A stretch of 64,000 nt of DNA from Candidatus Omnitrophota bacterium (lineage in GTDB: Bacteria; Omnitrophota; Gorgyraeia; Gygaellales; Profunditerraquicolaceae). The notes below the pieces were generated by a model, which had not been told where the DNA came from, ran no database searches, and saw nothing but the letters and a program-made list of their open reading frames with translations. Positions 13,237 through 63,642 of the stretch are shown here, in pieces. The stretch's first letter is position 1. Each line of letters opens with the position of its first letter. The stretch spans positions 2,296 through 66,295 of the forward strand of contig JBAZGA010000005.1 of the NCBI GenBank assembly GCA_041653115.1, read 5' to 3'. The translations under genes were made by a program, and so were the position numbers.

Positions 13237-13309
13237 GGGCCCATAGCTCAGTGGTGAGAGCAGGTGACTCATAATCACTTGGTCCGGGGTTCGAATCCCT
13301 GTGGGCCCA
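13237..13309 (+). tRNA. tRNA-Met, elongator type (anticodon CAT; Ile2/lysidine not excluded)
   Basis: Manual cloverleaf: acceptor GGGCCCA/TGGGCCC, D-loop AGTGGTGA, anticodon loop CTCATAA, T-loop TTCGAAT. Confidence 0.8.
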
Positions 13310-13327
13310 GGGTTTTCGTAAAATCCA

Positions 13328-13401
13328 GGGCGCATGGCTCAGCTGGTTAGAGCGCCACACTCACATTGTGGAGATCGTAGGTCCGAATCCTACTGCGCCC
13401 A
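13328..13401 (+). tRNA. tRNA-Val (anticodon CAC)
   Basis: Manual cloverleaf: acceptor GGGCGCA/TGCGCCC, anticodon stem CCACA/TGTGG, loop CTCACAT; the T-loop reads TCCGAAT (C at position 55), which is unusual. Confidence 0.7.
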
Positions 13402-13426
13402 CTTATAAAAGAGGAGAGGTTCAAAA

Positions 13427-14574: not shown

Positions 14575-14956
14575 GGGCAGGTAGAAAGTGGCCGCTCCGT
14601 TTACAAAAACGGAGAGGAAAGTCCGAGCTCCGGAGGGTAAGCGTAATGGGTAACGCCCATCCAGCGGCAGGAAACTGCCGGTGAGGATTTCCCGCCTTTG
14701 GCGGGATCCCTGCGGAAGCGTAAGCAAAGGCAGGGAAGAGCTACAGAGACGAGCCCGCCACGATTTGTGGCGGGGTGAAACGCCAGCAATCTCTACGCGG
14801 AGCAAGGCCAAATAGGAGACGAGGGGTGGACCCGCCCCGTTAATAATCTCGGGTAGGCTGCATGACTTTCGGCGGCAACGCCGGAAGCAAGAGAAATGGC
14901 CACCAGGACGCGGTTAATCGCATCCGGTACAGAACTCGGCTTATTCTATCTGCCCT
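14575..14956 (+). ncRNA. rnpB: RNase P RNA, bacterial type A
   Basis: P4 hallmark GGAAAGTCCGAGCTCC near the 5' end, conserved 3' ACAGAACTCGGCTTA, P1 pairing GGGCAGGTAGAA / TTCTATCTGCCC, T-run after the 3' end. Confidence 0.85.
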
Positions 14957-14985
14957 TTTTAAAATGTAATTAAAGGGAGGAAATT

Positions 14986-32950: not shown

Positions 32951-33457
32951 ATGGCTTTTAATAAGAAAAAGCTGGAAGAAAGAGTTATGGATGTGGACGC
33001 CTCAATGCAGGGAGAGTTAAGTTTTAGGGACCCGGTAAACCTGCGGATTAACGGCAGGTTTGAAGGGACGCTGAATACGCGGGGCACCTTGACCATCGCC
33101 TCAACCGCGAATGTAGTGGCGGATATTATCGGAGATAATATTATCGTCGGCGGCAGGCTCAAGGGCCGCGTCACCGCCAAAGAAAGCCTGACTCTTCTGC
33201 CCAGCGCGGTTCTCGAAGGCGACATATATCCTTTAAAGTTAAACGTCGCGGAAGGCGCGATATTCGAAGGCCGCTGCATCATGCTGCATGATTTTTTGAA
33301 TGCGGAAGAGCTGGCGCGTTACCTGGAAGTGGACTTGAATTCCATCCTGGAGTGGGCCAGCGCAGGCAAGGTGCCGGGGGTCAAAGAAGGGGAGCGCTGG
33401 AGATTCGAGCGTAAGGCAATAGATACGTGGGTGGCTTCGGGTAAGGTAGGAAAATAA
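32951..33457 (+). CDS. Bactofilin-domain protein fused to a C-terminal excisionase-family HTH (HTH_17-like)
   Basis: Bactofilin beta-helical repeats (GTLTIASTANVVADIIGDNIIVGGRLKGRVTAKESLTL...EGDIY) then LNAEELARYLEVDLNSILEWASAGKVPGVKEGERWRFERKAIDTWV. Confidence 0.7.
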   Translation: MAFNKKKLEERVMDVDASMQGELSFRDPVNLRINGRFEGTLNTRGTLTIASTANVVADIIGDNIIVGGRLKGRVTAKESLTLLPSAVLEGDIYPLKLNVAEGAIFEGRCIMLHDFLNAEELARYLEVDLNSILEWASAGKVPGVKEGERWRFERKAIDTWVASGKVGK

Positions 33458-33469
33458 CTTAAAAAATAA

Positions 33470-33778
33470 ATGACGGAAGAAAAACTTTTAACCATCAGGG
33501 ATGCCGCTTTAATCCTGGGCATCTCCGAAAAAGAGATTATTGATTTGGCCGAAAGCGGCACAATTCCCGCCTATAAAATCGGCGGCGTATACTTAAGGTT
33601 TAAACGCCAGCAGATAGAGGAAGCCAAAAAAACCTTAAACCTCGCCCCTAAGCCGGATGCCCGCCTGGAAAGGCGCTCGTGGAAAGACGGATTCAGCGAT
33701 TTTTTCTATTTTAACGATTTTTATATAATTTCCATCTTGATAATAGCCTTGATACTTTGGATAATATTCAAAGGGTAA
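33470..33778 (+). CDS. Excisionase-family HTH protein with C-terminal transmembrane anchor
   Basis: LTIRDAALILGISEKEIIDLAESGTIPAYKIGGVYLRFKRQQI (HTH_17-like) then the hydrophobic tail YIISILIIALILWIIF. Confidence 0.6.
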   Translation: MTEEKLLTIRDAALILGISEKEIIDLAESGTIPAYKIGGVYLRFKRQQIEEAKKTLNLAPKPDARLERRSWKDGFSDFFYFNDFYIISILIIALILWIIFKG

Positions 33779-33788
33779 TGAAAAAATA

Positions 33789-34457
33789 ATGCTTCTTAAG
33801 CGGGGGTTCTGCGATTTAGGGTTTGCCAGGCTTGACATAGACAGGCAAAAGCGCCGCGGATTTTCCGAAGCGGTATATTGCCCGGGAAAAACCAGGTCCC
33901 ACCTAAAAGATATCGCCAGGACATTCATCAGGAATAAGCAGGATTTACTCTTTACGAAGTTAGAGAAAAGCACTTTTAATTATTTAAAGAAATCATTTCC
34001 CCGCTTAAAGTATAACCCGCAGGCAAAGTTAGGCTATTTATCCAGGCAGCGTAAATCCTTGAAAAAAGGCGTGGTCGCGGTAATCTCGGCAGGGACCGCG
34101 GATATTCCGGTAGCAGAGGAAGCGGTTACCACTTTAGAGGTAATGGGGAACCGCGTGCTTAAGCTTTATGATGTAGGCGTCGCCGGCGTGCATCGGCTGA
34201 TGTTCGATATCGGGAAGATTAGGAAGGCAAGCGTAATTATCGTAGTTGCCGGTATGGAAGGGGCGTTAGCCAGTTTAGTCAGCGGATTAGTCAGCTCTCC
34301 GGTGATTGCCGTGCCGACGAGCTGCGGATACGGCGCGAATTTTTCCGGGCTTTCGGCGTTATTAACGATGCTGAACAGCTGTTCGCCGGGCGTGGCGGTG
34401 GTAAATATTGATAACGGATTTGGCGCGGGTTATATGGCAAGTTTAATCAACCGATGA
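33789..34457 (+). CDS. larB: LarB-like PurE-family carboxylase (nickel-pincer cofactor biosynthesis protein homolog)
   Basis: PurE-like core VVAVISAGTADIPVAEEA...VIIVVAGMEGALASLVSG plus a LarB-type N-terminal extension of about 90 aa. Confidence 0.65.
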   Translation: MLLKRGFCDLGFARLDIDRQKRRGFSEAVYCPGKTRSHLKDIARTFIRNKQDLLFTKLEKSTFNYLKKSFPRLKYNPQAKLGYLSRQRKSLKKGVVAVISAGTADIPVAEEAVTTLEVMGNRVLKLYDVGVAGVHRLMFDIGKIRKASVIIVVAGMEGALASLVSGLVSSPVIAVPTSCGYGANFSGLSALLTMLNSCSPGVAVVNIDNGFGAGYMASLINR

Positions 34458-34870
34458 TTTCCTTAAAGGAAGGAATAAGATTCCACGGGCATTTGGGGCC
34501 TTACCTGGTTTTGGGGATACGCGCCGGGGAACTGGCGCTGAAAAAATTAAACTGTAAAAAATATTTTGGCCTGGAGGTCAAGGTTTGGGGTGCCGGCGAA
34601 AAACCCAAATCCTGCCTGATTGACGGCTTGCAGCTTTCTACGGGAGCGACTTACGGAAAAGGCAATATCAGTAAATTTAACGGCAGGGTAATCAGGATCG
34701 GCTTTAAAAATAAGGTCAGCCGCAGGAAACTGATTTTAAAATTTAAGAATACCCTGCTGAAGGACTTGGCAGAAGCGGACACGCATCAAAAAGCAGAGAG
34801 ATTGGCAAGGCAATTATATAAAAAAAATCATGCGCAGCTTTTTAACTTAAAACTTACCTCCGGAGATTGA
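34454..34870 (+). CDS. FmdE-domain protein (formylmethanofuran dehydrogenase subunit E-like)
   Basis: EGIRFHGHLGPYLVLGIRAG N-terminal FmdE signature; 138 aa. Confidence 0.6.
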   Translation: MISLKEGIRFHGHLGPYLVLGIRAGELALKKLNCKKYFGLEVKVWGAGEKPKSCLIDGLQLSTGATYGKGNISKFNGRVIRIGFKNKVSRRKLILKFKNTLLKDLAEADTHQKAERLARQLYKKNHAQLFNLKLTSGD

Positions 34871-36201
34871 AGATGGCTTTATCAGGGCTGGATATCTATA
34901 AGCTTTTACCGAAAACGAACTGTAAAGAATGCGGGTTTGCGACCTGCCTTGCCTTTGCCATGGCATTGGCAAAGAAGGCAGTAAGCATTGACAAATGCCC
35001 TTATTTAAGCGCAGAAGCAAAAAAACAATTAGAGGCATCGAGCCTGCCTCCGGTAAAATTAGTTACTATCGGCGCGGGAGAAGATAAATTAGAGGTCGGT
35101 AATGAGACGGTGCTCTTCCGCCACGAAGAGAAATTCCACCACCCCTGCGGTATTGGCTTTATTATTGAAGACACCTTAGGCGATAACGAAATAAAGCAGA
35201 AGTTAGAAAAAATTAAGCGGTTGAAATTCGAGCGCGTGGGGCAGGAATTAAACGTAAACCTGGTGGCGATAAAACAGGCGGGCAGCGGAGAAAGGTTCGT
35301 AAAAACAGTGCAACTGGCAACACAGAATAGCCGGCTTGGCCTGGTATTGATGAGCGAGGATTTAACCGCCTTAAAGCAGGCTGCGGAATTTACGAAAGAG
35401 AGAAGGCCTTTAATCTATCACGCAAGCAAAGGCAACCTCGCCGGAGTTGCGCAAATTGCGAAAGAATTTAATCTGCCGCTGGTTGTTTCCGCGCCTGATT
35501 TAGAGGCAGTTTCCATCCTGGCCGGGGAATTAAACAGCCGAGGGCTGAATGATTTAATCCTGGAGACCGGGATTAAGCCGATAAGAGATAGAATCTGGGA
35601 TTTGACTCAGATAAGAAGACAGGCGCTGAAAAAATCCAACCGCAGCTTAGGATATCCGGCCTTAACAATTATCGACAAGAAAGACCCTGAGGAAGAAGCA
35701 GCCGAGGCAGCGACTTATATCGCCAAATACGCGGGAATTATTTTGCTGCGCGGCATTGAGCCGTGGCAGATTTTATCCCTTTTGACTTTAAGGCAGAATA
35801 TCTACACCGACCCGCAGAAGCCGCTGCAGATTGAGCCCAAGCTTTACAGCGTCGGTCAGGTAACCGATAAATCGCCGGTACTGGTGACTACCAACTTTTC
35901 CTTGAGCTATTATACGGTATTGGGGGAAGTGGAGGCCAGCAAGATACCTTCTTATATCGTCAGCGTGGATACCGAAGGGATGTCGGTATTGACTGCCTGG
36001 GCAGCGGAAAAATTTACCCCGGAAAAAATCGCGGATTCCCTGAATAAATTCGGCGTCAAAGAGGCGGTTTCGCACAACAGATTAATTATCCCCGGATATG
36101 TGGCGGTGATGAGCGGGGATTTGGAAGAGAAGTCCGGACGGGAGATTATCGTCGGGCCCAAAGAAGCCGCCGGCATACCGTCATTTTTAAAAAAATTGTA
36201 A
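34867..36201 (+). CDS. acsC: Corrinoid iron-sulfur protein large subunit (acetyl-CoA decarbonylase/synthase gamma subunit)
   Basis: N-terminal [4Fe-4S] motif CKECGFATCLAFAMALAKKAVSIDKCPYL, TIM-barrel and B12-binding regions. Confidence 0.85.
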   Translation: MKMALSGLDIYKLLPKTNCKECGFATCLAFAMALAKKAVSIDKCPYLSAEAKKQLEASSLPPVKLVTIGAGEDKLEVGNETVLFRHEEKFHHPCGIGFIIEDTLGDNEIKQKLEKIKRLKFERVGQELNVNLVAIKQAGSGERFVKTVQLATQNSRLGLVLMSEDLTALKQAAEFTKERRPLIYHASKGNLAGVAQIAKEFNLPLVVSAPDLEAVSILAGELNSRGLNDLILETGIKPIRDRIWDLTQIRRQALKKSNRSLGYPALTIIDKKDPEEEAAEAATYIAKYAGIILLRGIEPWQILSLLTLRQNIYTDPQKPLQIEPKLYSVGQVTDKSPVLVTTNFSLSYYTVLGEVEASKIPSYIVSVDTEGMSVLTAWAAEKFTPEKIADSLNKFGVKEAVSHNRLIIPGYVAVMSGDLEEKSGREIIVGPKEAAGIPSFLKKL

Positions 36202-36208
36202 CCATAGG

Positions 36209-38137
36209 ATGGAAAAGTTCAAAGTTACATTTTACCCGGACAATAAGACCATAGAGGTAGAAAAGGGCAAGACTATCCTGACGGCTGCCATTTCTGCCGG
36301 AGTCTATATTAATTCCAGCTGCGGCGGAGACGGCGTTTGCGGCCGCTGCAAAGTAATTTTAAAAAAAGGCGAGGTAATCAGCCAGCCCACCGGAAGATTA
36401 AGCCTGGAAGAACGCAGGCAGGGGGTCCATCTTGCCTGTCTTTCTACGATAGAGGGCGATTTGGAGGTGGAGATTCCTCCGGAATCGAGGTTAGACTTAG
36501 AGCAGCTCAACCCCGAAGAAGTTGATTTAAGGTTAAAGGGCCTTTATTCGAAGGCCGAAGAAATCGAGCCGGTAAAATCAATTTTAGGCGAAGAAATTTT
36601 TCACCACTCTCCTTTAGCCACTAAGCTATATCTGGAATTACCTCAACCGACCCTGGAAGATACGGTCAGCGATCTGGAAAGATTATACCGCGCCATCCGT
36701 AAAATCCAGGATATCCCGGTGATGCAGGCCGGCCTGGCCAATATCCGCGGGTTAGGCGAGTTGTTACGTGATGCTGAATGGAAAATTACCGTGACTTTAG
36801 GCAAAAGAAACGGCACCACGGAAGTCGTGCTGGTTGAGCCGGGGGATACCTCGCAGCATAATTACGGCCTGGCCTTTGACATCGGGACTACGACTATTTC
36901 CGGGCAGTTGGTGGATTTACGCACCGATAAGGTTTTAGGCAGCAAAGCCGCTTACAATAAACAGGCGGCATTCGGCAGCGATATCATCACGCGTATCATT
37001 TATGCCCGGGAAGAGGACGGCCTGGAAAAGCTCCACCATGCCGTGGTTGACGTAATGAACGGGATGTTACATGAATTAATCCAGGAGCACTCAATAGACC
37101 TGAATGACGTGAACTGCGCCCTTTGCGCGGGCAATACCACGATGATGCATCTTTTGCTGCGGGTTGACCCGACATATATCAGGAGAGAACCCTATGTGCC
37201 CACGGCGAATTTTGTCCCGACGGTGCGCGCCAGCGAAGCCGGGATAAAAATAAATCCGCGCGGGCTTTTATCCTGCGTTCCGGGCGTCTCCAGTTATGTA
37301 GGCGGCGATGTCACTGCCGGGGTTTTATCCTGCGGCCTGGATAACGAAGAAGATTTATGCCTTTTGATTGATATCGGCACCAACGGCGAAATAGTTTTAG
37401 GCAGCAGGGAGTTTTTGATTTCCGCTTCTGCTTCTGCCGGACCGGCATTTGAAGGCTCGGGTGTTGCCTGCGGCATGCGTGCCAGCCGCGGCGCCATCCA
37501 AAAAATAAAAGTCAGCCCCAAAGATTTCAACGTTGCTTACAGCGTAATCGGCGAAGAAGAGCCCCGCGGCATCTGCGGCTCGGGTTATATTGACCTGATT
37601 GCCGAAATGCTGCGCGCCGGCCTCCTGGATAAAAGCGGGAAGCTCAAGGCAATAAAGAACAGGCGTATCCGTGATGGCGAAACAGGCAAGGAGTTTGTGG
37701 TGGTTTTCAAGGAAGATACAGGCACGGCTTCCGATATCGTGATTAATGAAGCAGATATTGAGAACTTGAAACGCGCCAAGGCAGCGATTTACTCGGCAGC
37801 CGCCAGCCTGGTCAGGCGTATGAGCCTCGATTTTAGGAAAATTAAGAAATTTTTTATTGCCGGCGGGTTCGGCACTTATATTGATGTCGCCAATGCCATT
37901 GCTATCGGCTTGCTTCCGGACTTGGATAAATCAAGATTTATTTTTGTCGGTAACAGTTCCTTGGCCGGAGCGCGGCAGATTCTTCTTTCTTACGAAGCGA
38001 TGAAAAAGGCGGATGAGATTGCCCGCAAGATGACTTACTTTGAGCTCTCGGTTGACCCCGGATATATGGATGAATATATGGCGGCTTTATTTTTCCCGCA
38101 TACGGATTTGGCAAAATTCCCCAGTGTGAAAGTATAA
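36209..38137 (+). CDS. acsV: Reductive activator of CFeSP (RACo/AcsV; 2Fe-2S ferredoxin plus ASKHA ATPase, DUF4445)
   Basis: Plant-type [2Fe-2S] motif SCGGDGVCGRCKV followed by a DUF4445/ASKHA-type domain. Confidence 0.8.
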   Translation: MEKFKVTFYPDNKTIEVEKGKTILTAAISAGVYINSSCGGDGVCGRCKVILKKGEVISQPTGRLSLEERRQGVHLACLSTIEGDLEVEIPPESRLDLEQLNPEEVDLRLKGLYSKAEEIEPVKSILGEEIFHHSPLATKLYLELPQPTLEDTVSDLERLYRAIRKIQDIPVMQAGLANIRGLGELLRDAEWKITVTLGKRNGTTEVVLVEPGDTSQHNYGLAFDIGTTTISGQLVDLRTDKVLGSKAAYNKQAAFGSDIITRIIYAREEDGLEKLHHAVVDVMNGMLHELIQEHSIDLNDVNCALCAGNTTMMHLLLRVDPTYIRREPYVPTANFVPTVRASEAGIKINPRGLLSCVPGVSSYVGGDVTAGVLSCGLDNEEDLCLLIDIGTNGEIVLGSREFLISASASAGPAFEGSGVACGMRASRGAIQKIKVSPKDFNVAYSVIGEEEPRGICGSGYIDLIAEMLRAGLLDKSGKLKAIKNRRIRDGETGKEFVVVFKEDTGTASDIVINEADIENLKRAKAAIYSAAASLVRRMSLDFRKIKKFFIAGGFGTYIDVANAIAIGLLPDLDKSRFIFVGNSSLAGARQILLSYEAMKKADEIARKMTYFELSVDPGYMDEYMAALFFPHTDLAKFPSVKV

Positions 38138-38138
38138 A

Positions 38139-38891
38139 ATGAGTTATACCATCGCTATTGCCGGAAAAGGCGGCACAGGCAAAACCACTATCGCAGCGCT
38201 CCTGGTGAGGCTGCTCAAGGAAAAGAAGCTGGGTTCGATTCTGGCAGTGGATGCCGACCCGAACAGCAATTTAGGCGAGGCCTTAGGCGTAGAAGTAAAA
38301 GAAACTATCGGCTCTATCCTTGATGATATCGCGGCGCATCCGGAGAGAATCCCTTCCGGGATGCCTAAAGAGCGCTTCATCGAATATGAAGTCCAGACCG
38401 CGGTCCGCGAGGCAGAGGGTTTTGATGTCCTGACAATGGGTAAGCCCGAAGGCCCGGGCTGTTATTGCTATGTCAATAACGTCTTAAGAAACCTGATGGC
38501 GCGCCTGATTAAAGACTACGATTATATCGTGATTGATAATGAGGCGGGTTTAGAGCACCTTTCCCGCCGGACCACCAGAAGCGCCGAGGCGTTGGTGGTA
38601 GTTTCAAACATTACAGCCGCAGGCTTAAAAGCTGCCGGAAGAATCGGCGAACTAGCCAGAGAGCTGGATATAAAAATAAAGAAGAGCCTCCTGGTAGTAA
38701 ATTGCTCCGAAAAAAATCCGGCAAAAGAAACGCTTAAAGAAATGGGTTTGGATTATATCGGTAATATACCCCGGGATAGGCGGATAGAAAAAATCAGCCT
38801 GAACGGAAATTCATTACTTGCATTAGCCGATGATGCGCAAAGCATCAGCGCCTTGCGTAAAATAGGAGATAAGATATGGCAGCAGAGTTGA
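38139..38891 (+). CDS. cooC: CooC/AcsF-type MinD-family ATPase (Ni-insertion accessory protein)
   Basis: IAIAGKGGTGKTTIAALL deviant Walker A and CxC metal motif GPGCYCYVNN. Confidence 0.8.
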   Translation: MSYTIAIAGKGGTGKTTIAALLVRLLKEKKLGSILAVDADPNSNLGEALGVEVKETIGSILDDIAAHPERIPSGMPKERFIEYEVQTAVREAEGFDVLTMGKPEGPGCYCYVNNVLRNLMARLIKDYDYIVIDNEAGLEHLSRRTTRSAEALVVVSNITAAGLKAAGRIGELARELDIKIKKSLLVVNCSEKNPAKETLKEMGLDYIGNIPRDRRIEKISLNGNSLLALADDAQSISALRKIGDKIWQQS

Positions 38892-39808
38892 TGTTGGAAA
38901 AATGGCCGGGTGAGGTAGCGGTGATTACTATCGGCGCGACTAAAGGCGAAGGGGGCAGCCGCTCCCGGGCGATTAAGGTCGGCGGCCAAAAGGCCCTGCC
39001 GTTTTTATCTGCCGAAGGCGCAATCCCGCATCGGCCGGTAATCGCCTTTGAAATCTGGGATACAGCGCCCACAGATTGGCCGGAAGAATTAAACAAGGAT
39101 TACCGCGATGTTTTTAGCGAGCCCCTGGCCTGGGCGGAAAAATGCGTAAAGAAATACCAGGCAGGAATTTTATGTTTGAAATTACAGGCAGCGCACCCGG
39201 ATTTCGGGGATAAGAGCCCGGATGCGGAAGCGAAATTAGTTTCAGAATTGCTCAAAAAAATAGATGTGCCGCTGATTATCTTGGGCTGCGGAGATGACGC
39301 CAAGGATAACCTGGTTTTACCGGCAGTCTGCGAAGCAGCCAAGGGCGAACGCTGCCTGATCGGGAGCGCCGTACAGGATAACTATAAAACCCTGACTGCC
39401 GCGGTGCTGGCAGACGGCCACAATATTGTCGCCGAATCGCCCATTGATATCAATATCGCCAAACAGCTGAATATTTTAATTTCCGATATGGGCCTGCCTC
39501 TGGAGCGCATCGTGATTAATCCTACTATCGGCGCACTGGGCTATGGCCTGGAATACGCCTATTCAATTATGGAGCGCAGCCGTTTGGCAGCCCTGGCAGG
39601 AGACAAAACCGTAGCCAGCCCGTTTATCTGTCTGGCAGCCCAGGAATCCTGGCGGGCAAAAGAAGCTAAAATAGATTCCGAGCACGGGATAATCTGGGAA
39701 ATAGTGACTGCTACTGCGCTGCTTCAGGCAGGAGCGGATATCCTGGTGATGCGCCATCCCCGGGCAATCGAAAAAGTGAATAAGCATATAGATGAATTAA
39801 CCGGATAG
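38876..39808 (+). CDS. acsD: Corrinoid iron-sulfur protein small subunit (acetyl-CoA decarbonylase/synthase delta subunit)
   Basis: About 310-aa TIM-barrel protein between cooC and acsE in the canonical acs order; profile consistent with AcsD/CdhD. Confidence 0.7.
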   Translation: MAAELMLEKWPGEVAVITIGATKGEGGSRSRAIKVGGQKALPFLSAEGAIPHRPVIAFEIWDTAPTDWPEELNKDYRDVFSEPLAWAEKCVKKYQAGILCLKLQAAHPDFGDKSPDAEAKLVSELLKKIDVPLIILGCGDDAKDNLVLPAVCEAAKGERCLIGSAVQDNYKTLTAAVLADGHNIVAESPIDINIAKQLNILISDMGLPLERIVINPTIGALGYGLEYAYSIMERSRLAALAGDKTVASPFICLAAQESWRAKEAKIDSEHGIIWEIVTATALLQAGADILVMRHPRAIEKVNKHIDELTG

Positions 39809-39819
39809 AGAGCAGGCAG

Positions 39820-40608
39820 ATGTTTATTATCGGCGAGCTGATTAACGGGATGTATAATAATATAGGTAAGGCGATTAAGGCAAAGGATAAGGCCGCCATC
39901 CAAAAGTGCGCCTTTGAGCAACTTCAGGCAGGAGCGGACGCCCTGGATGTCAATTGCGGCCCGGCATCGCGCGAGCCGCTTTCGGATATCCAATGGTTGG
40001 TCCAGGCTATCCAGGAGGTAACGGATAAGCCGCTTGCTCTTGATTCCAGCAAGCCGCAGGTGATTGAATCGGGCTTAAAAGTACTGAAAAATAAAGCAAT
40101 TATCAATTCTACCACCGCAGACCCGGAAAAGCTGGAAGTCCTTGTGCCCTTAGCGCAGAAATATAATGCCAAGCTCATCGGCCTGACCATCAGTTCCAAG
40201 GGTATCCCGCAGAATAAAGACCAGCGCCTGGAATTGGCCGCCAATATCGTGGCTACCTGCGCTGACGCGGGGCTTCCTATTGAAGACCTTTATCTTGACC
40301 CGATTGTGCTGCCGGTGAACGTTGCCCAGGCGCAGATGCGCGATATCCTGGAATCCATCCGCGAATTCAAAATCATTTCCGACCCTTCGCCTAAAACCAT
40401 TGTCGGCTTAAGCAATGTCTCCCAGGGAACCTGCGTCAGAAGCCTGGTTAACCGCACCTTCCTGACTATGGCAGTGGCTTTTGGCCTGGATGCCGCCATC
40501 CTTGACCCCAAAGATAAAGAGCTGGTAGATGCCGCCATTACCGCCGAGCTGATTCTTAACAAGCAGATTTACTGCGATTCCTATTTAGAGGCCTACCGGA
40601 AGAAATAG
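39820..40608 (+). CDS. acsE: Methyltetrahydrofolate:corrinoid/iron-sulfur protein methyltransferase (pterin-binding)
   Basis: MFIIGELINGM...GADALDVNCGP...DPIVLPV pterin-binding barrel signatures. Confidence 0.8.
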   Translation: MFIIGELINGMYNNIGKAIKAKDKAAIQKCAFEQLQAGADALDVNCGPASREPLSDIQWLVQAIQEVTDKPLALDSSKPQVIESGLKVLKNKAIINSTTADPEKLEVLVPLAQKYNAKLIGLTISSKGIPQNKDQRLELAANIVATCADAGLPIEDLYLDPIVLPVNVAQAQMRDILESIREFKIISDPSPKTIVGLSNVSQGTCVRSLVNRTFLTMAVAFGLDAAILDPKDKELVDAAITAELILNKQIYCDSYLEAYRKK

Positions 40609-41579: not shown

Positions 41580-42218
41580 ATGAAATTTGATGAATTCCTC
41601 AAGAGGGTGCGGGGCTTACCGGTAATAGATGCCGAAAACCTGCTTGCCGGAGTCGTTAACCCGGCTCCCGTTAAAGTGCAGTTGAGCCGCTGGCGTAAGG
41701 CCGGAAAGTTAATCAAACTCAAGAATAACATTTACTTATTAGCTGAAAATTTCCGCAAAGCGGATATTTATGAACCGTACATTGCTTCGGCGCTCAAAAG
41801 GCCTTCGTATATCAGCCTTGAGAAAGCTTTTGAATACCACGGGCTTATCCCCGAAGCGGTTATGGTTTATACCTGCGTTACCACTAAGCGGCCAGGAAAA
41901 ATTATTACGCCCATCGGCACGTTTGATTACCGCCATATTAAAAGTAGCCTTTTCTGGGGGTATGATTCGGTTATTGTAAACAAGCAGCAGGCATTTATCG
42001 CAGGCCCTGAAAAGGCCCTGTTGGATTTTTTCTATTTAAGGGGCCTGCGGGTTGACGAGGCCTATTTGGAAGAGATGCGGTTGCAAAATTTCAGAAAAAT
42101 CAATTGCGTTAAATTACTTCAATATGCCGGGAGGTTTAAAAGCCCCGGCGTCCTGAAGGCATCTGAGATTATTAAAAAATACGTTTGCGGGCGCAGGAAG
42201 GAAGAAAAATATTTATGA
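41580..42218 (+). CDS. abiEi: AbiEi-family antitoxin / transcriptional regulator (type IV TA)
   Basis: N-terminal AbiEi_4-like profile (LSRWRKAGKLIKLKNNIYLL) and ATGA coupling to the downstream nucleotidyltransferase. Confidence 0.7.
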   Translation: MKFDEFLKRVRGLPVIDAENLLAGVVNPAPVKVQLSRWRKAGKLIKLKNNIYLLAENFRKADIYEPYIASALKRPSYISLEKAFEYHGLIPEAVMVYTCVTTKRPGKIITPIGTFDYRHIKSSLFWGYDSVIVNKQQAFIAGPEKALLDFFYLRGLRVDEAYLEEMRLQNFRKINCVKLLQYAGRFKSPGVLKASEIIKKYVCGRRKEEKYL

Positions 42219-43021
42219 AAGATTACCTGTTGGAGCTGGTATCGCAGAAAGAGGGGTATAATGCCAGGCTGAATACTATGCGGGAGTATTTGCAGGCATA
42301 TATCTTAAGGGTAATGCAGGATGAGGGCGTATTCCGCTCGGCGGCATTTTTAGGCGGTACGGCCCTTAGGTTTTTATACGGCCTGCCGCGTTTCTCCGAA
42401 GACCTGGATTTTTCTTCGGCAAAAAAACAGGCGGTTCCCTTCGCGGCATTGCTGAAAAAGATTGCCTCCGAACTTTCAGCAGCCGGCTACGATGCTTCAG
42501 TTGTTTACAACGACAGAAAAACTGTGAACTCAGCTTTTATCAAGTTCTCAAACCTGATGTTTGAAGCGGGGATTTCGCCTGTAAAAAGCCAGAAATTTTC
42601 CATTAAGGTTGAGATTGACACCCATCCCCCGGAAGGGGCTGTCCTTACGACCCAGATTGTAAACAAATATTTCCCGGTTTCTTTTTTATCCTATGAGATT
42701 GAATCGCTTTTTGCCGGGAAGCTGCATGCGTTATTGTCCCGCAGATACGCCAAGGGCAGGGATTATTTTGATTTAGGCTGGTATTTGTCAAAATGGAGCG
42801 CTATAGAGCCGAATTTCAAACTGCTCAAGAATGCCCTTAGACAGACAGGGTGGAAGAAGGATTTTCCTGCACAAGATAACTGGAGGCGGTTAATCCGCGG
42901 GATTGTTGAAGGAGTAAATTGGGCTAAGGTTAAGCGGGACGTCGAAGGGTTCCTGGAAAACCCTTCTGATGCAGGCATATTTACTAAGGAGAATACCCTC
43001 CGCCTTTTGCAAAATACCTAA
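42215..43021 (+). CDS. abiEii: AbiEii/AbiGii nucleotidyltransferase toxin (DUF1814)
   Basis: LGGTALRFLYGLPRFSEDLDF hallmark motif; start set at the ATGA overlap (track: 42185). Confidence 0.8.
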   Translation: MKDYLLELVSQKEGYNARLNTMREYLQAYILRVMQDEGVFRSAAFLGGTALRFLYGLPRFSEDLDFSSAKKQAVPFAALLKKIASELSAAGYDASVVYNDRKTVNSAFIKFSNLMFEAGISPVKSQKFSIKVEIDTHPPEGAVLTTQIVNKYFPVSFLSYEIESLFAGKLHALLSRRYAKGRDYFDLGWYLSKWSAIEPNFKLLKNALRQTGWKKDFPAQDNWRRLIRGIVEGVNWAKVKRDVEGFLENPSDAGIFTKENTLRLLQNT

Positions 43022-62239: not shown

Positions 62240-62626
62240 ATGGTCCGTAAAAAAGTCCTTCGGCACATCTTTAAATTTCACGGCTTCCGCGAGAGCCTGC
62301 TCATCGCAGTCAAAGGGATTCTTTACCTTTTTCTCTATCATCGGAATATGCGCCTGATATTCATGCTCGGCGTCACGGCATTTCTTCTCGGGATCTATTT
62401 TCAATTAAAGGGCATTGAACTGGTCGCCCTTTCTGTTACCATCACCCTCGTATTTATGGCGGAGATTTTTAACACCGCGATTGAGATGCTAATGAACATG
62501 TTTACGGCGAAATACCATGTCAGGATAAAACTGGTAAAGGATATTGCCGCAGCAGTAGTAGTGCTGGCGTGTTTAAACGCCCTTGCCGCAGGATACATCC
62601 TTTTCGTCAGGAAAATTTTTAAGTAA
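62240..62626 (+). CDS. dgkA: Diacylglycerol/undecaprenol kinase (DgkA family)
   Basis: Three TMs and the EIFNTAIE motif. Confidence 0.75.
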   Translation: MVRKKVLRHIFKFHGFRESLLIAVKGILYLFLYHRNMRLIFMLGVTAFLLGIYFQLKGIELVALSVTITLVFMAEIFNTAIEMLMNMFTAKYHVRIKLVKDIAAAVVVLACLNALAAGYILFVRKIFK

Positions 62627-63565: not shown

Positions 63566-63642
63566 GGCGGCGTAACTCAGTCTGATAGAGTAGTCGGCTC
63601 ATACCCGATTTGTCACAGGTTTAAATCCTGTCGCCGCCACCA
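63566..63642 (+). tRNA. tRNA with CAT anticodon (Met or Ile2), encoded CCA
   Basis: Manual cloverleaf GGCGGCG...CGCCGCC-A-CCA, anticodon loop CTCATAC; non-canonical D-loop (TG for GG) and T-loop TTTAAAT. Confidence 0.6.

Follow-up and report, generated by a model that had tools for sequence, protein, structure and literature searches.

Genes at the Locus

The window analysed here is a 64-kb stretch of a contig from an Omnitrophota MAG, and the genes under study are packed together on its plus strand. larB (33789-34457; 222 aa; called as an ORF and by the LarB profile) is followed by a gene for a 138-aa FmdE-domain protein of the HGHxGP subfamily (34454-34870; Pfam PF02663), and for both genes the ORF list gives the coordinates assigned in the original prediction. 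Two genes with helix-turn-helix domains precede larB, one encoding a bactofilin-HTH protein (32951-33457, plus strand; Pfam Bactofilin and HTH_17) and the other a small HTH_17 protein (33470-33778, plus strand). The gene downstream of the FmdE-like gene was expected to be acsC, for the large (gamma) subunit of CFeSP, and it is (34873..36201, plus strand; NF003195, 568.5 bits against a cutoff of 306; Pfam FeS and CdhD). It opens a plus-strand operon that continues with RACo/AcsV, the corrinoid protein reductive activator (36209..38137), a CooC/AcsF-type P-loop ATPase of the MinD/ParA class (38139..38891; Pfam CbiA and AAA_31), acsD for the CFeSP small (delta) subunit (38876..39808; NF003376, 401.7 bits against 280), and acsE for the methyltetrahydrofolate:corrinoid/iron-sulfur protein methyltransferase (39820..40608; NF005719, 310.5 bits against 259; Pfam Pterin_bind). 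RACo matches all four of its Pfam domains (Fer2, RACo_linker, Raco_middle and RACo_C_ter), and its NF040756 score of 675 bits lies below the exception cutoff of 800. The ATPase is a putative accessory for Ni insertion, judged by its family, and relatives keep its gene at the same place in their acs operons.

The acs cluster of acetogens has the same gene set in the same order, acsC-RACo-cooC-acsD-acsE. The window operon differs from it in that acsA and acsB are absent and that larB and the FmdE-like gene stand in front. Neither acsA nor acsB was found at 33.8-40.6 kb, and no such ORF was noticed in the 64-kb window. Partial pathways without AcsA are known in Omnitrophota, and the Wood-Ljungdahl pathway has already been described for Gorgyraia and Velamenicoccia (PMC10066038). 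In the literature we found no mention of larB or an FmdE-like gene ahead of acs, no link of Lar proteins to the Wood-Ljungdahl pathway, and nothing relevant on a link of FmdE to corrinoid or ACS or on a pairing of LarB with FmdE.

Both junctions of the FmdE-like gene had been described as ATGA couplings. The first is one: the stop of larB and the start of the FmdE-like gene share ATGA at 34454-34457. The second is not. The stop codon TGA of the FmdE-like gene lies at 34868-34870, and the mechanically called acsC ORF opens with TTG at 34867, which makes a TTGA overlap. The ATG at 34873, 2 nt past this stop, corresponds to position 1 of the NCBIfam AcsC profile and to the start of homologues (MALSGLDIYK...). 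By this alignment, acsC likely starts at ATG 34873 rather than at TTG 34867, and the junction would then be a 2-nt gap.

Such couplings had been read as a functional sign, and this reading is not supported, because 4-nt overlaps are generic in the window (13 of 68 adjacent ORF pairs). Gaps of 15 nt or less are found in 53 of the same 68 pairs. Among related loci, LarB and FmdE genes overlap in only 20 of 71, and FmdE and AcsC genes in 8 of 85; in the larB-larC-acs arrangement, the stop of the upstream HTH gene also overlaps the start of larB. The ATGA overlap between larB and the FmdE-like gene probably reflects genome compaction and not a dedicated partnership. A weak sigma-70-like site lies just 5′ of larB (33737-33765). 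Relatives do not share it, and promoter-like sites show no enrichment in the window (28, against 20.4 ± 4.2 in shuffles). A scan for promoters and terminators gave counts near the shuffle expectation.

Identity of LarB

The first gene had been assigned to LarB rather than to class I PurE, and this assignment holds. Its product scores 289.5 bits against the NCBIfam LarB profile NF033503 (cutoff 175; E 1.4e-86), and its best match in the PDB is LarB of L. plantarum (7mj0/8soq; 58% identity, E 2e-67). Residues 8-222 align with residues 31-245 of the L. plantarum protein, extension included. The Pfam AIRC domain covers residues 96-219 only, so that about 95 aa precede it, and the LarB-type N-terminal extension that had been proposed is thus present. 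The probability that this is just a class I PurE serving purine biosynthesis is negligible. The AIRC domain and weak PDB matches to 2ywx (E 3e-10) and 1o4v (E 3e-5) are what such a reading could draw on, but the score against the PurE profile TIGR01162 is 32.5 bits, far from its cutoff of 149.6, and the alignment with the solved LarB spans the full length with the N-terminal extension and Cys221. On the two profile scores, the PurE assignment was rejected.

Cys221 of L. plantarum LarB is reportedly the catalytic cysteine. Its equivalent is present in all 90 LarB sequences aligned, including that of the window, where we take the conserved Cys to be the counterpart of the catalytic residue. Of the 70 columns with a conservation of 90% or more across 74 other LarBs, the window protein matches every one. 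One difference from the L. plantarum enzyme, with which it shares the N-terminal extension, the PurE-like domain and all highly conserved positions, is Ala at the position of Ser127. This column varies naturally among LarBs (Ser, Ala or Thr), with Ala in 18 of 67 others, and the enzyme with S127A is active and serves as the preparative form (PMC13524815). An exact look-up of the window LarB gave no record, probably because its source used another start. By sequence, the gene encodes a canonical LarB, and no sign of a change in function was seen in the 70 conserved columns.

The FmdE-Like Protein

The FmdE-domain identity of the 138-aa protein is likewise secure, with 63.8 bits against Pfam PF02663 (cutoff 22.9) over profile positions 1-122 of 133. 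Its AlphaFold model (pLDDT 88.3) has 2gvi and 2glz as the top Foldseek matches (TM 0.76, E ~1e-6, probability 1.00). With these structures, the N-terminal domain of Ta1109 (2GVI) and Dhaf_2992 (2GLZ), the protein shares the alpha+beta core fold and the His-x-His plus distal Cys; H11, H13 and C54 align with the metal ligands, 2GLZ bound Zn/Ni there, and 2GVI carries a ligand on Cys61. Like 2GLZ, it is without the zinc-ribbon C-terminal domain. It differs from both in that Cys19/Cys20 is replaced by Gly within an HGHLGP motif, in an extra clade-specific invariant residue, His111, and in that its gene is not beside fmd/fwd genes or metal transporters. The four-ligand His-x-His-x-Cys...Cys site is therefore incomplete, with Gly15 in place of the third-ligand Cys. 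This site is a trait of two of the three solved members and not of the whole family. The HGHxGP motif, with Gly for the third Cys, is found in 129 of the 150 nearest representative clusters. The HGHxGP subfamily comprises 235 representative clusters at E ≤ 1e-10 and includes fused and probably exported forms, with leader-like N-termini in about a quarter of the members.

Within the clade of the window, the FmdE-like proteins are 53-87% identical with about 30 invariant residues, among them H11, H13, G15, C54, D57, Q60, T66, K69 and H111; N71 is conserved in at least 90%. An exact match of the window protein was found on a 1.6-kb Logan contig. In about 90 loci, the FmdE gene lies directly 5′ of acsC or one small ORF away, and nowhere else, and larB lies 5′ of FmdE-acsC in all of them but L164, where a Pyr_redox_2 gene takes the upstream place. 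No fmd/fwd genes were found in the window or in these loci, where larB and acsC are the neighbours. Most members of the FmdE family are found outside fmd operons (PMC2954224). From its fold, conserved residues and position, the protein may be a metal- or ligand-binding accessory.

Gene Order in Omnitrophota and Other Phyla

A GTDB scan with the window LarB gave 80 loci, followed by tblastn and clustering of ORFs, and about 190 related loci were compared overall, with crude gene calling. In about 30 Omnitrophota loci, the block gatCAB-ctpB-(polysaccharide deacetylase)-tsaD-mgtC-bactofilin-HTH-larB is conserved upstream, and the order mgtC-bactofilin-HTH-larB is common to all five types of arrangement (A-E). 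The block ends in larB as its last fixed gene, and the 3′ neighbours of larB differ by lineage. Directly 3′ of larB come larC in seven loci, pilB in three, larC-acsC in two, and acsC, with neither larC nor FmdE, in five; one of the last five (L010) is labelled Pacebacteria, and MAG contigs can be mis-binned. FmdE-acsC follows larB in 11 loci. The complete trio larB-FmdE-acsC is counted in 14 GTDB species, and among metagenome loci it is present in 66 of 80, with most of the others being truncated contigs (66 of 66 when only untruncated loci are counted). The sister Omnitrophota with HTH-larB-larC-acsC have the same larB orthologue, chromosomal position, and upstream and downstream genes as the window; the window lineage, by contrast, lacks larC in the slot and has an FmdE-family gene instead.

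Outside Omnitrophota, among about 57 LarB loci, no acsC lies within 10 kb of larB and there is no credible FmdE neighbour. The sole match to FmdE is weak and partial, about 6 kb off and on the opposite strand. larC accompanies larB in 38 of these loci and larE in 23. In this the larB-larC(-larE) clusters of other phyla differ from those of Omnitrophota, where larE is never adjacent.

Trees of LarB and AcsC, made by neighbour joining (NJ) only, place the arrangements in order. Both recover the FmdE type as monophyletic, with direct larB-acsC as its sister or in a basal position. The AcsC tree nests these two types inside larB-larC-acs, whereas in the LarB tree larB-larC-acs is merely their sister group. 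Read together, the trees make larB-larC-acs the ancestral arrangement, with larC subsequently lost from its slot and FmdE gained once after that. In a compositional test for recent transfer, the FmdE gene is unremarkable. The order larB-(larC or FmdE)-acsC persists over a great evolutionary distance, with LarC identity as low as 42%, which could alternatively reflect selection for co-expression.

Partners of LarB

LarC, a CTP-dependent cyclometallase, has about 400 aa. A tblastn search of the 64-kb window with 65 LarC/LarE query sequences gave neither protein (best E 0.01). The claim that larB stands alone holds for these 64 kb, in which no larC, larE or larA is seen, and in this the window differs from a larA-E operon of the L. 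plantarum type. In addition, neither larC nor larE was found in the 10-kb flanks of the FmdE-type or direct larB-acsC loci, nor in the 80 metagenome loci of the FmdE-type clade. LarC and LarE clusters in the loci compared were checked with NCBIfam. The absence of larE from the window is uninformative, since larE is near larB in none of 32 Omnitrophota loci, even where larB and larC are adjacent.

Relocation of larC was also considered. None of the 120 nearest LarC relatives examined proved to be a relocated copy. The LarCs nearest to those of the larB-larC-acs clade are, where placeable, all still in that arrangement, and five further relatives, which include the query P0168 and are 42-100% identical to it, are all in larB-larC-acsC. 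By GenBank accession number, no LarC lies within genome-sized distance of the FmdE-like accessions (MFA5410637.1 for the window, MDD2752787, MCM8770635, MCX5710203 and PIP20653), a result that does not count against a larC in these genomes. A group of 387-aa LarCs was considered as the relocated gene and set aside; its members are all but identical, come from a single organism labelled Deltaproteobacteria and sit in an unrelated context. No remnant of LarC was found beneath the FmdE gene, and BLAST detected no similarity between the FmdE-like protein and LarC.

Why larB Precedes the acs Operon

It is probable that the window carries an ordinary LarB at an inherited position, with larC lost from the slot, the FmdE gene inserted later, and the overlap due to compaction. 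LarB would carboxylate C5 of the nicotinic-acid ring of NaAD and hydrolyse off AMP to give P2CMN for the nickel-pincer nucleotide cofactor. Its gene would owe its position to the end of a co-directional, tightly packed Omnitrophota array. In the ancestral state larC would stand next after larB, and a single large clade has the CFeSP operon acsC-RACo-cooC-acsD-acsE directly 3′ of larC. In the sub-clade of the window, larC would have been deleted from the slot, and in a later step the 138-aa single-domain FmdE-family gene would have been inserted before acsC. The product of LarB would presumably still enter the usual LarE/LarC pathway, whose genes would lie elsewhere in the genome. As to the FmdE-like protein, the conserved His-x-His...Cys...Asp/Gln/Thr/Lys/Asn pocket may, we suggest tentatively, bind a metal or small ligand, and with similar caution the protein might act as an accessory that is co-expressed with the CFeSP/CooC module and not with LarB. 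Both suggestions draw on its fold, conserved residues and position only.

According to the original prediction, these genes could mean that the Ni-dependent pathway has its own carboxylation or metal-handling step, or that cofactor synthesis or maturation takes a novel route. The comparison does not bear this out: the upstream block is conserved with or without acs, sister lineages carry the canonical partner larC beside larB, and FmdE is a late insertion in a single clade whose relatives have larB abutting acsC. In its broader form, LarB and the FmdE-like protein would work with the acs genes as one functional module, supplying for example a pyridinium-dicarboxylate-derived or nickel-containing factor for maturation or activity of CFeSP/ACS. 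We regard this as most improbable. The order larB-(larC or FmdE)-acsC is strictly kept across a large Omnitrophota clade, but the order of the upstream gatCAB, ctpB, tsaD and mgtC is equally strict, so that conserved order is here no sign of shared function, and lineages without acs at the site keep HTH-larB-larC or HTH-larB-pilB. Tight co-directional packing and the weak sigma-70-like site upstream of larB would fit a module, as would the CooC-type Ni-insertion ATPase in the operon and the Ni/Zn bound at the homologous site in an FmdE-family crystal structure (PMC2954224). Against them stand the lack of enrichment of promoter-like sites and of conservation of that site, the canonical sequence of LarB, the absence of acsC and credible FmdE beside larB outside the phylum, and the lack of any paper found that links Lar proteins with the Wood-Ljungdahl pathway. 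It is also quite unlikely that LarB is truly an orphan, with larC lost rather than moved and FmdE replacing LarC or P2CMN being used independently of LarC. The absence, in the derived clade, of larC from its ancestral slot between larB and acsC, the failure to find larC or larE in any sequence examined from it or a relocated copy among the 120 relatives, the strong constraint still acting on LarB, and an FmdE fold whose His/His/Cys site is able to bind Ni (PMC2954224) all speak for it. However, parsimony on both trees puts the loss of larC before the arrival of FmdE, and in five species larB abuts acsC without larC or FmdE while LarB is equally conserved, so that FmdE is not required for the retention of LarB. 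A 138-aa FmdE domain is also unlike the much larger LarC, L164 has FmdE-acsC without larB, and the HGHxGP subfamily is widespread, with leader-like N-termini, which argues that it is not NPN-specific. Furthermore, Omnitrophota with larB-pilB lack an adjacent larC as well, and only a small part of each genome is visible. A version in which larC was deleted and never relocated, and LarB was kept for LarC-independent use of P2CMN (or a thiolated derivative) or for an FmdE-aided alternative delivery of metal, seems very unlikely. In that version, the role of P2CMN would possibly be tied to the adjacent CFeSP/CooC module.

In a further rival reading, the FmdE-like gene is a hitch-hiker whose function is unrelated to its neighbours and which became fixed at the site in one clade. 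We consider this somewhat unlikely. It accords with a single gain in one clade whose sister species have no FmdE gene, with variable spacing to both neighbours and unremarkable composition, and with a 235-cluster subfamily whose fused and probably exported forms imply a general biochemical role. Nevertheless, after the gain about 90 loci all keep the gene right before acsC or one small ORF away, and the strong conservation of the protein suggests a role selected in the context of acs expression.

Implications for Gene Neighbourhoods in Omnitrophota

The meaning of this locus is mostly cautionary. Single-strand-biased, streamlined genomes such as those of Omnitrophota pack functionally unrelated genes in conserved order. 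Because packing, 4-nt overlaps and conserved order span unrelated genes, guilt by association from one window over-reads the evidence. Two modest leads come out of the comparison. One is an uncharacterised, large HGHxGP branch of the FmdE family with a near-invariant His/His/Cys/Asp/Gln/Thr/Lys/Asn pocket. The other is an Omnitrophota clade in which larB-larC lies head-to-tail with the CFeSP operon, with a sub-clade that lost larC there. Searches for new nickel-pincer enzymes rely on the neighbourhoods of Lar genes (PMC13524815), so that whether this clade still makes the cofactor matters to the field. As for the larB and FmdE genes before acs, their arrangement is an inherited order in a very compact genome and offers no evidence of a novel pathway for nickel or a cofactor.

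Identity of the larB product

The open reading frames of larB (33789-34457, plus strand, 222 aa) and of the FmdE-like gene (34454-34870, plus strand, 138 aa) lie where the original prediction placed them, and the naming of the former as larB is borne out. Its product reaches 289.5 bits with the NCBIfam LarB equivalog (cutoff 175); PurE was rejected, the NCBIfam model giving just 32.5 bits against a cutoff of 149.6. The LarB-type N-terminal extension is also present, with the Pfam AIR-carboxylase domain restricted to residues 96-219. The closest relative of solved structure is L. plantarum LarB (E 2e-67), to which window residues 8-222 align. Cys221 is conserved without exception in an alignment of 90 LarBs (L. 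plantarum LarB, 80 GTDB species and additional loci). In the other 74 LarBs, 70 columns reach 90% conservation or more, and the window protein has the consensus residue at every one of them. The entire clade without adjacent larC likewise keeps 70/70. Where L. plantarum LarB has Ser127, the window LarB has Ala; among 67 LarBs outside the acs-linked clades, this residue is Ser in 45, Ala in 18, Thr in 3 and Leu in 1. The S127A variant retains activity, with a preference for the dicarboxylated product (PMC13524815). Judged by its residues, the window LarB is unaltered relative to the family, and Ala at this position is a common natural variant.

Gene order around larB

Loci came from scanning one genome of each GTDB species with LarB, which gave 80, and from searches via FmdE and LarC homologues; they were analysed by tblastn and ORF clustering, and LarC/LarE clusters were checked with NCBIfam. 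Omnitrophota keep the order gatC-gatA-gatB-ctpB-(polysaccharide deacetylase)-tsaD-mgtC-bactofilin-HTH-larB throughout, and the genes after larB vary among five types. larB is followed by larC-acsC-RACo-cooC-acsD-acsE in type A (loci L020, L028, L089/L090, L091, L092, L093, L094), by FmdE-acsC in type B (the window, L002-L009, L011-L013, L015, L017), directly by acsC, 2-180 nt past larB, in type C (L010, L014, L016, L018, L019), by larC in type D (L021, L022, L024, L026, L027, L068, and also L050, labelled Planctomycetia), and by pilB in type E (L025, L034, L070). Among about 57 LarB loci outside Omnitrophota, larC was found in 38 and larE in 23, acsC in none within 10 kb, and a credible FmdE neighbour in none; the sole FmdE match was weak, partial, about 6 kb off and on the opposite strand (L073). 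Thus, LarB has no general association with acs or FmdE genes.

In type A, a large Omnitrophota clade, larB-larC is fused directly to acsC-RACo-cooC-acsD-acsE (e.g., L092:9327-16983), with a larB/larC overlap of 4 nt and a larC/acsC overlap of typically 19 nt. This arrangement, of which no description was found in the literature searched, persists down to 42% LarC identity. One type A contig (L091:1-21179, ENA contig k139_909879) is palindromic, with an inverted copy of mgtC...larB-larC-acsC-RACo from 14648 on, and is probably an assembly artefact. The type C contig L010 (PFLP01000057.1) has Omnitrophota bactofilin-HTH-larB-acsC synteny and 70% LarB identity, yet it is labelled Candidatus Pacebacteria and is likely mis-binned.

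In the window, Pfam and NCBIfam identify acsC, RACo/AcsV, a CooC-type ATPase, acsD and acsE after the FmdE-like gene. Neither acsA nor acsB lies in this operon (within 33789-40608), nor was either noticed in the rest of the window; the CooC-type nickel-insertion ATPase is nonetheless present. Wood-Ljungdahl genes, at times partial, have been described in the classes Gorgyraia and Velamenicoccia, and partial pathways without AcsA have been reported for some Omnitrophota (PMC10066038). In the relatives L004, L006 and L012, acsE adjoins a diacylglycerol kinase gene; in the window an insertion of about 21.6 kb (40609-62239) separates it from that gene (62240-62626). GC there is lower, at 0.38-0.45, than elsewhere (0.46-0.50). 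Within the insertion are an AbiEii toxin gene (42185-43021), its likely AbiEi partner (41580-42218) and a polysaccharide/O-antigen cluster (GINT1_N-like, Polysacc_synt, GT2, Wzy_C, GT1, Bac_transf). The window also encodes tRNA-Met and tRNA-Val (13237-13402), RNase P RNA (14577-14957) and a second tRNA-Met (63566-63642).

Gene junctions

larB and the FmdE-like gene share an ATGA (34454-34457), as predicted. The second ATGA, claimed between the FmdE-like gene and acsC, does not exist: the FmdE-like gene's TGA stop (34868-34870) shares bases only with a TTG, and profile and homologues place the acsC start at the ATG at 34873, 2 bases past the stop. Overlaps of 4 nt join 13 of the 68 adjacent ORF pairs in the window, overlaps of any length 36, and 53 pairs are spaced by 15 nt or less. 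Since several 4-nt overlaps lie between genes of unrelated function (ctpB and the polysaccharide deacetylase gene, for instance), the ATGA junction carries little information here. Nor is the LarB/FmdE overlap conserved among type B relatives, occurring in 20 of 71 loci (gap of 1-92 nt in the remainder); an overlap between FmdE and AcsC is seen in 8 of 85. In type A, the stop of the upstream HTH gene overlaps the larB start, so that larB can as well be counted the last gene of the upstream array as the first of an acs operon. The sole candidate promoter, a sigma-70-like site at 33737-33765, is not conserved in relatives, and sites of its kind show no enrichment over shuffles. Essentially all window genes lie closely packed on the plus strand, with positive GC skew along the whole of 1-64000.

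The FmdE-like protein

The protein matches Pfam FmdE (63.8 bits vs 22.9) and no NCBIfam model; its sequence is the same as that of MFA5410637.1, encoded on a 67,924-bp contig of a Candidatus Omnitrophota MAG. Its confident AlphaFold model (pLDDT 88) resembles the FmdE core domains 2GVI and 2GLZ (TM 0.76). These have a Zn or mixed Zn/Ni site formed by His-x-His-x-Cys and a distal Cys, and in 2GVI an unidentified ligand lies 1.8 Å from the distal Cys (PMC2954224). The window protein, in contrast, has H11, H13, Gly15 and C54, and one ligand is missing. Its absence is not peculiar to the Omnitrophota clade: when 1.84 billion cluster representatives were searched exhaustively, 235 clusters matched at E <= 1e-10, and the motif HGHxGP occurs in 129 of the best 150. 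H11, H13, G15, C54, D57, G58, Q60, T66, G68, K69 and N71 are near-invariant in 114 single-domain members; invariance of H111 is limited to the Omnitrophota clade. The protein therefore belongs to a broad, uncharacterised branch of PF02663. About one quarter of single-domain HGHxGP proteins (e.g., the representatives P0362, P0365, P0380, P0384) have signal- or lipoprotein-leader-like N-terminal extensions of 35-70 residues, suggesting that part of the subfamily acts outside the cytoplasm.

The larB-FmdE-acsC trio occurs in 66 of 80 metagenome loci, most others being contigs that end early; one has a 124-aa ORF in front of acsC. In a Hainich groundwater contig (L164:85-2230), the only FmdE gene seen without larB, a Pyr_redox_2 gene (GltD-like, pyridine-nucleotide-disulfide oxidoreductase) precedes FmdE-acsC instead. 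Within Omnitrophota, the FmdE-like gene is confined to the slot before acsC and absent from all larB loci without acs, and is thus tied to acsC more than to larB. As a working model drawn from fold, conserved residues and position, it may be a small accessory protein that binds a metal or ligand and is expressed together with the CFeSP/CooC module.

Whereabouts of larC and larE, and origin of the arrangement

The nickel-pincer nucleotide (NPN) is the product of LarB, LarE and LarC; about 15% of genomes hold the larB/larE/larC trio without larA, and Lar-gene neighbourhoods are now yielding new NPN-dependent enzyme families (PMC11796402, PMC13524815). LarB is without lar partners within the 64-kb window: when 65 LarC/LarE sequences were run against it by tblastn, the best E was 0.01, and neither a PP-loop nor an N-terminal LarC motif turned up. 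No larC for type B or C appeared in the window, in the flanks of related loci or in the 80 metagenome loci, and every placeable relative of the type A LarCs is still in a type A array. Nor does larC adjoin larB in type E lineages. larE was found in none of 32 Omnitrophota loci, including 13 with larB and larC adjacent. Because larE is missing even there, dispersal of lar genes is normal in the phylum, and absence from the neighbourhood is no evidence of absence from the genome.

The original prediction named the genes correctly, and read LarB, FmdE and acsC as a dedicated carboxylation or metal-handling step tied to the Ni-dependent pathway, or a novel cofactor or maturation route. The literature searched mentions neither LarB with FmdE nor Lar proteins with the Wood-Ljungdahl pathway. 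Comparative context leaves this functional reading unsupported; conserved order and genome compaction, together with lineage-specific loss of larC from its slot and later insertion of an FmdE-family gene, account best for the arrangement. Neighbour-joining trees of LarB and AcsC are congruent, type B being monophyletic and type C sister or basal to it; B+C are nested inside type A for AcsC, and type A is their monophyletic sister group for LarB. In the simplest history, larB-larC would have stood at the end of the conserved block, the acs operon would then have come to adjoin it, and larC would have been deleted in the B+C ancestor, with a single gain of FmdE in the B ancestor.
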